Shown here piece after piece: positions 8,548-9,285 of a DNA stretch of 36,138 nucleotides. Position 1 is the stretch's first letter; every line of letters begins with the position of its first letter. The notes beneath the pieces were generated by a model. That model saw only the letters and a program-made list of their open reading frames with translations, was not told where the DNA came from and made no database searches. The position numbers and the translations under genes were made by a program. Where the stretch lies: the IMG/VR virus record IMGVR_UViG_2563366848_000001, one strand, 5' to 3'. The DNA comes from a virus. Its lineage: Duplodnaviria; Heunggongvirae; Uroviricota; Caudoviricetes.

Positions 8548-8630
8548 CGGTAGTGCTCCTTTTCATGTCTGGGAGCGCACCCGGTGCCAGCGGGCGAGAC
8601 ATAGCACCGTTGTGGATGCACTCTCAGTCA

Positions 8631-8658
8631 GGAAAAAGGCCCGTCAAGGGAGACGGGC
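8631..8658 (-). terminator. intrinsic terminator (minus strand) between the 68-aa ORF and the early operon
   Basis: 7-bp GC-rich stem GCCCGTC/GACGGGC with 6-nt loop followed on the minus strand by CTTTTTCC. Confidence 0.7.
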
Positions 8659-8676
8659 AAAGACTACACACAGCAA

Positions 8677-8883
8677 TTACATGGATGATTCAGAGTGTGG
8701 GGCAGGCCGCTGATTCCGATTCGCAAGGTAATTACAGCGAGTTACGGCTAGATCGAGTTGGGCATAGGCGCTGTCGCACGTAGAGTGCGTCAATCCTCGT
8801 CGCATGACATGGAAACCTGCTGGGTGGTTCAAAACCCAGAAATCGCCATTTTCATGGAGTATGTCCGATTCCTTAATTCGCAT
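8677..8883 (-). CDS. hypothetical small protein (68 aa) in the PL leader
   Basis: ATG at 8883 with GAGGG SD 7 nt upstream; lies between putative PL and the terminator; function unknown. Confidence 0.4.
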   Translation of the reverse strand: MRIKESDILHENGDFWVLNHPAGFHVMRRGLTHSTCDSAYAQLDLAVTRCNYLANRNQRPAPHSESSM

Positions 8884-9102
8884 AAGTTAGCCCTCAGTGG
8901 ATTAGTAAAAGGCCCAAAGCCTTTGATTAATTCACTGCACGCCCCATCATCGGGGCGTTTCAACTTGCGTGACTTATCAGCTCGTCGCGGTGTGGTCCTC
9001 TACGCTTACCGTACGCATACGGACTCGGCGCTTACCTCGATCCCATCGGGTGCCATTTCGTTTTGCCAGGAGCACAGCGGCTTACCTGTCACGCGGTTCT
9101 GT

Positions 9103-9115
9103 TTGTTAAAGAGCG
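9103..9115 (-). promoter_or_regulatory. boxA-like element CGCTCTTTAACAA in the PL transcript
   Basis: Minus-strand sequence matches the rrn/lambdoid boxA consensus (T/C)GCTCTTTAACAA, about 10-20 nt downstream of the predicted PL start. Confidence 0.45.
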
Positions 9116-9124
9116 ATTACTTCT

Positions 9125-9161
9125 TGGGATTAAATCTACAATTTGAGTTGTATTGTGTAAA
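9125..9161 (-). promoter_or_regulatory. putative PL promoter (-35 TTTACA, 17-bp spacer, -10 TAGATT) with embedded operator palindrome TACAA-N6-TTGTA
   Basis: Sigma70-like hexamers on the minus strand; the spacer palindrome (9137-9152) closely matches the operator between cI and cro. Confidence 0.45.
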
Positions 9162-9198
9162 CCACAAATGTGGTATTTATGGGTGCAAAAATACCACG
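9162..9198. promoter_or_regulatory. inverted repeats upstream of PL (CCACA-aa-TGTGG; GTGGTATTT-N10-AAATACCAC)
   Basis: Motif AAATACCAC also occurs in the cI-cro intergenic region (about 10000-10008), suggesting a second shared protein-binding site. Confidence 0.4.
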
Positions 9199-9285
9199 TT
9201 ATTGATATTTAAATGAATTTAGTTTGTAAGATTTTACAAGATAGGTGCGAGGAGGGCAGCGGAGCCCTCCAGCGGAGGCGGGGTT

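Follow-up and report, generated by a model that had tools for sequence, protein, structure and literature searches.

The early-left transcript of phage lambda carries in its PL-nutL-N leader a boxA, a hairpin, a ribosome-binding site, a small open reading frame (ORF) and a terminator, in this order, and in phage HK022 the put element is made of two stem-loops. Nus factors also act without the phage N protein, since they prevent Rho-dependent termination (PMC5725501, in which Baniulyte et al. derived the boxA consensus GYTCTTTAANA) and protect long untranslated RNAs such as clustered regularly interspaced short palindromic repeat (CRISPR) arrays (PMC7665894). As for the host small RNA (sRNA) RprA, it is cut by RNase E between GA and AUU to give a stable 47-nucleotide (nt) processed form that is active by itself (PMC5222698; PMC9262595). 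Here we analysed a viral DNA of 36,138 nt (Caudoviricetes; IMG/VR record IMGVR_UViG_2563366848_000001), hereafter the window, and in particular positions 9285 to 8548 of its minus strand, which an earlier note made from the sequence alone had described as a PL leader resembling a lambda N/nut antitermination unit. In our best explanation, which as a whole we hold with moderate confidence, the region forms the 5′ leader of the early-left (replication) operon in a family of temperate Enterobacterales phages, and N-independent boxA/Nus antitermination would operate there together with an attenuating terminator that releases a mimic of RprA.

The first part of this explanation concerns the terminator that precedes the replication genes and the module that contains it:

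8633 to 8693, minus strand: conserved RprA-like module (Rfam RF00034 and identity to K-12 rprA)
8677 to 8633, minus strand: processed-RprA look-alike, with the seed AUUGCUGUGUGUAGUCUUU, the terminator stem and a U run
8658 to 8639, minus strand: stem of the intrinsic terminator (8658-8652 with 8645-8639), followed by a U run at 8637-8633; the only minus-strand terminator-like site in the region

A permissive Rfam scan of 8300-9400 gave RprA (RF00034) as the only credible match, on 8741-8629 with 55.1 bits (E 4.7e-6), which is below the gathering score of 70, and the 5′ two thirds align poorly; the scan of the window at gathering thresholds gave none. The 3′ segment AATTGCTGTGTGTAGTCTTTGCCC is identical to K-12 rprA over 24 of 24 nt, and the identity begins exactly at the RNase E site between GA and AUU. 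When E. coli genomes were searched with blastn, 5,419 of 5,426 contained matches because rprA itself matches. Judged by these alignments, the terminator is a copy of processed RprA, which the earlier reading had missed, as it had the strong conservation of the ~175 nt that follow boxA. Since such copies score below the Rfam threshold, they are unannotated in RefSeq records, and no published account of phage- or plasmid-borne RprA copies came up in a literature search that used both names and sequence strings.

The pattern of variation was then compared between the parts of the module. Among 57 distinct copies, the 19-nt single-stranded seed shows at most two deviant sequences per column, and the stem covaries: pair 5 is GC in 31 copies, AU in 17, CG in 8 and UA in 1, and pair 6 occurs as UA, CG and UG. 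An invariant seed beside a covarying stem is the pattern expected of a functional sRNA and not of a mere terminator. The seed also remains invariant while the upstream genes vary, the stop codon of the 68-amino-acid (aa) ORF of the window (8679-8677) lying inside the module. Sequence features of the Hfq/RNase E type are present as well, namely a hairpin that has UCUUU in front of it and is followed by a U run, and the site between A and AUU, and the 5′ half of rprA is found in none of the 144 mobile-element copies.

A different explanation is that the RprA-like piece is a borrowed terminator or a recombination junction, recently captured from the host and without any action in trans. The module indeed lies exactly at the boundary between a variable slot and the conserved replication module, two IMG/VR copies (L053 and L057) have a stem and loop identical to those of E. 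coli rprA, suggesting recent capture, and no target was found for the seed. It is difficult, however, to see why a borrowed terminator would keep invariant a 19-nt single-stranded stretch that termination does not need while its stem covaries, why the match to rprA would start at the RNase E site, or why the module would be kept in the quite different surroundings of a lytic Erwinia phage and of Klebsiella plasmids. We thus consider this explanation unlikely, though of some weight. The module was also considered as a leftover attachment site; this was rejected, since it lies inside the operon and no integrase adjoins it.

The distribution of the module on mobile elements is wide. It was found in 64 IMG/VR contigs representing at least 10 unrelated upstream contexts, and in the six temperate contexts with a recognisable repressor it is located downstream of the cI-like gene and before the early genes. 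In the lambdoid Escherichia phage LLS (PQ299149.1, 2130-2710), the order is an early-left promoter, a ~340-nt ORF-free leader, the RprA-like terminator and yfdP, with no boxA; about 150 nt of this leader (GTGTAGCGTCGCCGG...GGCACCACCGCCACAAC) also occur in Klebsiella phages and in the P1-like phage D6, and could represent a further conserved RNA. In the lytic, N4-like Erwinia phage Ea9-2 (KF806588.1, 1195-1240), the RprA seed and terminator ATTGCTGTGTGTAGTCTTTGCCCATCGTAAGGTGGGCTTTTTT directly follow the thymidylate synthase gene. Among plasmids of PLSDB, 689 bear the module, 645 of them from Klebsiella, where the carriers are large IncF plasmids; in the K. pneumoniae plasmid NZ_CP089990.1 (2233-2550), the module is found together with the upstream CTGAATCATCC block behind an 86-aa ORF, which is itself flanked by IS5 copies. 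The prophage of Pectobacterium odoriferum (L110) has before its replication genes a diverged RprA-like element, AAAGCTGTGTAGCCCTTGCC, with a hairpin and eight T, which might match Pectobacterium rprA rather than that of E. coli. In five IMG/VR contigs (L007, L013, L028, L052 and L065), the 40 nt before the seed resemble the T-arm and acceptor end of a tRNA, for example CCGGTTCGATTCCGG; despite these T-arm-like sequences, ARAGORN and Rfam revealed no tRNA or known RNA adjoining the module upstream in the other contexts. Tentatively, and with less confidence than in the reading of the window itself, we propose that the processed half of RprA, an envelope-stress sRNA of the host, was taken up repeatedly by Enterobacterales phages and plasmids as a portable 3′ cassette. 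While the element infects or is carried, this cassette would turn on the processed-RprA part of the host regulon and no other, for instance against rival conjugative plasmids or for envelope remodelling. In the phages studied here, the cassette would additionally serve as an attenuator of the replication operon, read through with the help of an N-independent boxA and a new structured leader RNA.

The second part of the explanation concerns the RNA upstream of this terminator, which contains the following elements:

9103 to 9115, minus strand: boxA CGCTCTTTAACAA (9115-9103), ~10 nt into the transcript from the predicted start
8939 to 9102, minus strand: constrained structured leader RNA, ~165 nt after boxA (conservation and covariation)
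9094 to 9088 with 8973 to 8967, minus strand: long-range helix of the leader (proposed fold)
9051 to 9034 and 9022 to 9009, minus strand: leader hairpins (proposed fold)
8958 to 8939, minus strand: 3′ hairpin of the leader (proposed fold)
8895 to 8937, minus strand: long imperfect hairpin of ~19 base pairs (inverted repeat), which at its 3′ end shares one base, the first, with the ribosome-binding site of the 68-aa ORF (8895-8891)

The sequence CGCTCTTTAACAA is the only exact boxA copy in the window, and its core GCTCTTTAACA fits the gamma-proteobacterial consensus; the next-best match, with two mismatches, is located at 26518, outside the early region, and scanning the whole window gave no second boxA in the rightward operon. 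To define the layout of the locus, the window was aligned with five relatives carrying three different immunity regions. The order obtained is a promoter and operators specific to the immunity type, then boxA with ~175 conserved nt, a variable segment, CTGAATCATCCATGTAATTGCTGTGTGTAGTCTTTGCCC with the hairpin and the U run, and finally the replication genes. Similarity between phages of different immunity type begins at boxA, ends at the last base of the stable hairpin and resumes at CTGAATCATCCATGTAATTGCTGTGTGTAGTCTTTGCCC. In prophages of Pluralibacter, Pectobacterium and Symbiopectobacterium, whose DUF2800 protein shares 49-83% identity with that of the window, these 12-13 nt are again found behind the early promoter, so that boxA occupies the same place, just after the promoter, in four genera including Escherichia. 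It is kept in Pectobacterium and Symbiopectobacterium although the rest of their leaders is unrelated in sequence to the E. coli leader. The genome of Symbiopectobacterium sp. RP harbours three related prophages (L114, L115 and L116) with three different immunity regions that are identical exactly from boxA; these lack the RprA-like terminator and keep the long hairpin.

In P. odoriferum (L110, 2060-3060), one leader has two boxA copies, one after the promoter and the other after a 95-aa ORF, exactly where the long untranslated leader begins. In the window too, boxA heads a long untranslated RNA, with 242 nt to the first ATG, and ~290 nt are ORF-free in the commonest form. Spacing and slot contents were counted over 77 loci, taken from virus and metagenome collections, in which both conserved blocks are present, and the distance from boxA to the terminator ranges from 200 to 950 nt, which implies that any effect of boxA must be processive. 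Taken on sequence grounds, boxA is a genuine, conserved and anciently kept piece of the leader, and its placement is as expected, by analogy, for N-independent Nus antitermination.

The ~175 nt that follow boxA are the most conserved part of the whole region. Over the 179 nt from boxA on, the phages are 96-98% identical, and the replication genes of the same phages reach 83% (49-aa ORF), 71% (307-aa gene), 75-77% (DUF2800) and 82% (DUF2815); in the Pluralibacter comparison, the leader is 91.5% identical versus 68-87% for the genes. Within the leader, 63 distinct variants show hardly any change in a 58-nt core. A 17-mer from this core scanned over metagenomes gave mostly chance matches in soil contigs, from which true leaders were separated by nhmmer. 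As the fold energy of the leader was uninformative, conservation and covariation were used instead. The proposed fold consists of a long-range helix around three hairpins, plus a 3′ hairpin, with 98.4% of cells paired, and the 63 variants contain three compensatory double changes in three different helices, a level that 2 of 500 shuffles reach and that slid controls (0-1) do not. No Rfam family matched the leader, either with the window at gathering thresholds or with 8300-9400 at permissive E-values. These data lend modest but real support to a function at the RNA level. A coding function was rejected, both for a 28-codon sense frame and for a 46-codon antisense ORF (8969-9109), because the variable positions do not fall on a single codon phase, several of the common substitutions would alter the encoded amino acid, and no variation is seen in the 58-nt core.

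Could the conserved leader itself be the antiterminator? It could be a factor-independent antiterminator RNA of the HK022 put kind that reads the intrinsic terminator, boxA handling only Rho. Its position directly after the early promoter, its conservation far above that of the neighbouring genes, the signs of a fold given by the modest covariation, its action, if any, over variable distances and the lack of a protein candidate all suit such a role. On the other hand, the Pectobacterium and Symbiopectobacterium leaders are unrelated in sequence, and the leader has 175 nt and at least four helices against the two stem-loops of put. In favour of the idea, put figures in Stringer et al. (PMC7665894) as an alternative to boxA. 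We take this as a serious rival or complement to the N-independent boxA/Nus reading, although on its own it seems rather improbable.

Alternatively, the conserved 175 nt could act as DNA, for instance in a replication origin whose iterons would be the GGTAAGC repeats, or could work in trans as a separate RNA or sponge. The leader indeed lies beside the replication genes and contains three direct GGTAAGC repeats. Their spacing (51 and 26 nt) is irregular, however, the conservation runs from boxA to the last base of a stable RNA hairpin, and the compensatory changes keep RNA pairing, which makes this a distinctly improbable explanation. One IMG/VR locus (L088) has exactly lost the segment between repeats 1 and 2 (leader positions 30-79), which looks like a repeat-mediated deletion and would also suit the iteron idea.

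Downstream of this leader, the long hairpin keeps a three-part shape in relatives from E. coli, Pectobacterium and Symbiopectobacterium, although its apical sequence differs among them (z-scores from -2.3 to -6.2); that it is an RNase III site would be a guess.

The leader, transcribed in the same direction as the repressor gene, would be made from a repressor-controlled promoter, defined by the following features:

9133 to 9161, minus strand: early-left promoter of the lambda PL type, TTTACA-17-TAGATT (9161..9133; consensus scan), predicted start near 9125
9136 to 9208, unstranded: three tandem operators ATACMA-N6-TKGTAT (palindrome count)
9136 to 9153, unstranded: operator inside the promoter spacer
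9159 to 9176, unstranded: operator over the -35 element
9191 to 9208, unstranded: operator just upstream of the promoter
9955 to 9972 and 10000 to 10017, unstranded: operators between the repressor and cro-like genes
9286 to 9912, minus strand: cI/LexA-type repressor gene, 208 aa from the ATG at 9912 (HTH_3 and Peptidase_S24; phrog_4, transcriptional repressor)

The consensus scan found TTTACA-17-TAGATT as the only minus-strand sigma-70-like site in 8000-10500. By itself this match is at chance level (1 found versus 2.3 expected), and the promoter takes its weight from the operator palindromes that surround it. The palindrome ATACMA-N6-TKGTAT has five copies in the 36-kb window, all in the immunity region, and none of 100 shuffles reached five. 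A promoter under three operators shared with the repressor-cro interval is therefore most simply read as an early-left promoter like PL of lambda, and relatives with other immunity regions have a promoter at the equivalent place. The earlier note had proposed a sigma70-like minus-strand promoter with an operator palindrome in its spacer that matches the cI-cro operator, followed by an rrn/lambdoid boxA; the coordinates hold, the same palindrome does recur between the repressor and cro-like genes, and the boxA is of exact consensus, unique in the window and kept in four genera. After the repressor gene, 9240-9285 (minus strand) contains GC-rich hairpins without a U run, where relatives have a clear intrinsic terminator. 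Thus, for want of a U-run terminator, repressor transcripts might enter the leader and the RprA-like module in the lysogen.

At the other end of the leader, transcription would have to pass the RprA-like terminator in order to reach the replication genes:

8548 to 8632, minus strand: spacer between the terminator and the first replication gene, 85 nt before the ATG at 8547
8398 to 8547, minus strand: 49-aa ORF with a hydrophobic segment (phrog_11981), the first conserved gene of the replication operon

The terminator alone folds at -16 kcal/mol (z-score -5.1). No promoter-like site was detected by the consensus scan between the terminator and the replication genes (8548-8630). The 85-nt spacer is absent or much shorter in many relatives: at 16 loci, the seed ends only 30-40 nt ahead of the first replication-gene ATG, and these nucleotides are occupied by the terminator hairpin and the U run, GGAG and ATG following the U run within ~5 bases in the commonest form. 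With no promoter after the terminator in the window and no more than this interval in relatives, read-through appears obligatory. The strong intrinsic terminator ~85 nt before the first replication gene and the need to read through it both came from the earlier note and are borne out here; an independent promoter in between, which the note had counted as evidence against its reading, was not seen in the scan. In all relatives, the 49-aa ORF comes directly after the terminator. Next in the operon are the genes for a 307-aa protein, DUF2800, DUF2815 and a PolA-type polymerase.

Between the leader and the terminator, the window has a small gene:

8677 to 8883, minus strand: 68-aa ORF (8883-8677), with GAGGG 7 nt before the ATG and a stop codon at 8679-8677

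The order boxA, long hairpin, ribosome-binding site, small ORF and terminator resembles lambda PL-nutL-N, and the 68-aa ORF, present with the good Shine-Dalgarno sequence ascribed to it in the earlier note, belongs to a real phage gene family (phrog_20712, no annotated function, E 1.9e-26). In a lambda-like N/nut unit, the 68-aa protein would bind the leader RNA beside boxA and, with Nus factors, read through the terminator. Its sequence has no Pfam match, and it lacks an N-terminal arginine-rich motif, in line with the remark of the earlier note that it is not arginine-rich like N of lambda. In its commonest form (25 loci), the slot between leader and terminator measures 46 nt and holds no ORF; elsewhere it is filled by unrelated ORFs of 54-190 aa, some on the opposite strand, such as unrelated 54-70-aa ORFs, a 170-aa protein (phrog_3007) or a 174-189-aa protein encoded on the opposite strand. 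Because the slot is empty or differently filled in relatives, the 68-aa ORF is, on this comparison, optional cargo in a variable slot outside the regulatory unit and not an analogue of N. We also found no conserved boxB hairpin after boxA, the sequence there differing completely among E. coli, Pectobacterium and Symbiopectobacterium relatives; a small hairpin is possible after the boxA of the window and is broken by a common U-to-A variant. With a single boxA in the window in addition, the comparative data largely refute a lambda-like unit, which we regard as very improbable. Of the N/nut proposal, the repressor-controlled promoter, the boxA and the required read-through stand, and the N analogue and boxB do not; likewise, the search for the same architecture in relatives showed promoter and boxA placement kept in four genera and the 68-aa ORF and boxB not kept. 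As to other slot cargo in relatives (for example L081, L045, L002 and L006), the 170-aa phrog_3007 protein is weakly similar to sliding-clamp domains, and the 174-189-aa opposite-strand protein is phrog_1244, a coiled-coil protein with cysteine pairs.

We therefore return to N-independent boxA/Nus antitermination with an attenuating, RprA-releasing terminator, for which the following sequence of events can be proposed. Upon loss of the repressor, RNA polymerase would start at the early-left promoter, and the nascent boxA would recruit host NusB/NusE with NusG, NusA and SuhB, with no phage N protein involved. The Nus-bound polymerase would be resistant to Rho across 290-1000 nt of largely untranslated RNA. 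Some transcripts would end at the RprA-like terminator, and RNase E cleavage between A and AUU would then yield a ~45-nt Hfq-type sRNA bearing the seed of processed RprA, which may act on host targets of processed RprA without the rpoS-activating part of RprA. The remaining transcripts would read through, allowing the replication genes to be expressed. In the least certain step, the structured leader would most likely aid processivity or read-through in cis.

Several points weigh against this scheme. Nus complexes without N are known to counter Rho and not intrinsic terminators (PMC5725501); boxA alone thus does not explain read-through of the hairpin, which leaves a terminator that simply leaks or a contribution by the structured leader. 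Other phage families have the RprA-like terminator in the same position, and boxA is absent from them, which means that read-through is not strictly boxA-dependent. The whole leader folds no better than shuffled sequence (z-score -0.41), and its covariation support amounts to three single-sequence events. For the sRNA part, the U run of the window consists of no more than five U behind a C, whereas a 3′ end that binds Hfq well usually has a longer one, and no seed target was identified, the phage itself containing no complement of at least 10 nt and only the antisense strand of the seed and one chance 9-mer. Finally, the transcription start, the efficiency of termination, the processing by RNase E and the binding of Hfq are all inferred.

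As for its setting, E. coli STEC383 and B379 harbour a prophage that matches the leader region at 100% identity. The STEC383 copy adjoins a truncated tRNA-dihydrouridine synthase gene (dusA fragment), its repressor gene is annotated as a LexA family protein, and its gene content includes a PolA-type polymerase, DUF2800, DUF2815 and a VapE-type primase. Related elements occur in ~100 of the 5,426 complete E. coli genomes and in cultured phages such as vB_EcoM-606R2.

The locus thus combines, in sequence terms, an N-independent type of boxA antitermination in a phage, a leader RNA under constraint that had not been described before, and a copy, in the sense strand, of a core host sRNA, the function of each being deduced. 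If the proposal is true, a temperate phage would run its replication operon on a host rrn-type boxA without N, which would widen the uses of Nus beyond rRNA, suhB and CRISPR arrays, and the leader would be a new and very strongly conserved RNA. Mobile elements would also copy a core host sRNA in sense orientation, a mimicry that differs from the sponge and anti-sRNA strategies described so far. Processed RprA acts alone, and is said to be sufficient to activate ricI, but its direct targets are poorly defined. The independent maintenance of the module by phages and by hundreds of Klebsiella plasmids suggests that the 19-nt seed has a target worth hijacking, and the phage and plasmid copies are natural constructs for finding it.

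The comparison with described systems separates what is shared from what is particular to this locus. Like lambda PL-nutL-N, it has an early-left promoter operated by the repressor, a boxA close to the 5′ end, a long leader in which a large hairpin precedes the first ORF, and a terminator to be passed before the early genes. Unlike lambda, it has no boxB, no N-like protein and no second nut site, and its boxA is of full rrn-type consensus where that of lambda is weaker. With rrn operons, Salmonella CRISPR arrays and the suhB leader, it shares an exact GYTCTTTAANA boxA that heads a long untranslated transcript and whose placement is kept across genera; it differs from them in being a phage replication operon, in which the obstacle is an intrinsic terminator that N-less Nus complexes are not known to overcome. 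HK022 put, compared by position only, is a cis-acting RNA just downstream of the early promoter in a phage without N protein, a place that the leader of the window also occupies, but this leader is larger and accompanied by boxA.

The terminator shares with the 47-nt processed RprA an identical seed, a terminator hairpin that is preceded by a U-rich stretch and followed by a U run, and a 5′ boundary of the RNase E type. In contrast to RprA, the phage copy lacks the 5′ stem-loops, the Rcs/Cpx-controlled promoter and the central region (nt 30-70), which holds the rpoS-pairing region. This central region also pairs with narP (PMC9262595). The copy is moreover embedded in an operon, as a 3′ untranslated region or an intra-operon terminator, and scores under the Rfam threshold. 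By analogy, it would resemble phage Hfq sRNAs, for which lambda PreS is a recent precedent in the literature alongside the anti-sRNAs of enterohaemorrhagic E. coli prophages, in being a phage transcript that ends in an Hfq-type terminator and acts on host mRNAs, and 3′ untranslated region-derived sRNAs such as CpxQ in being released by RNase E from a longer transcript. PreS, the anti-sRNAs and CpxQ have their own seeds or act as sponges, whereas the phage copy reproduces a core host sRNA in the same sense, which points to mimicry rather than titration.

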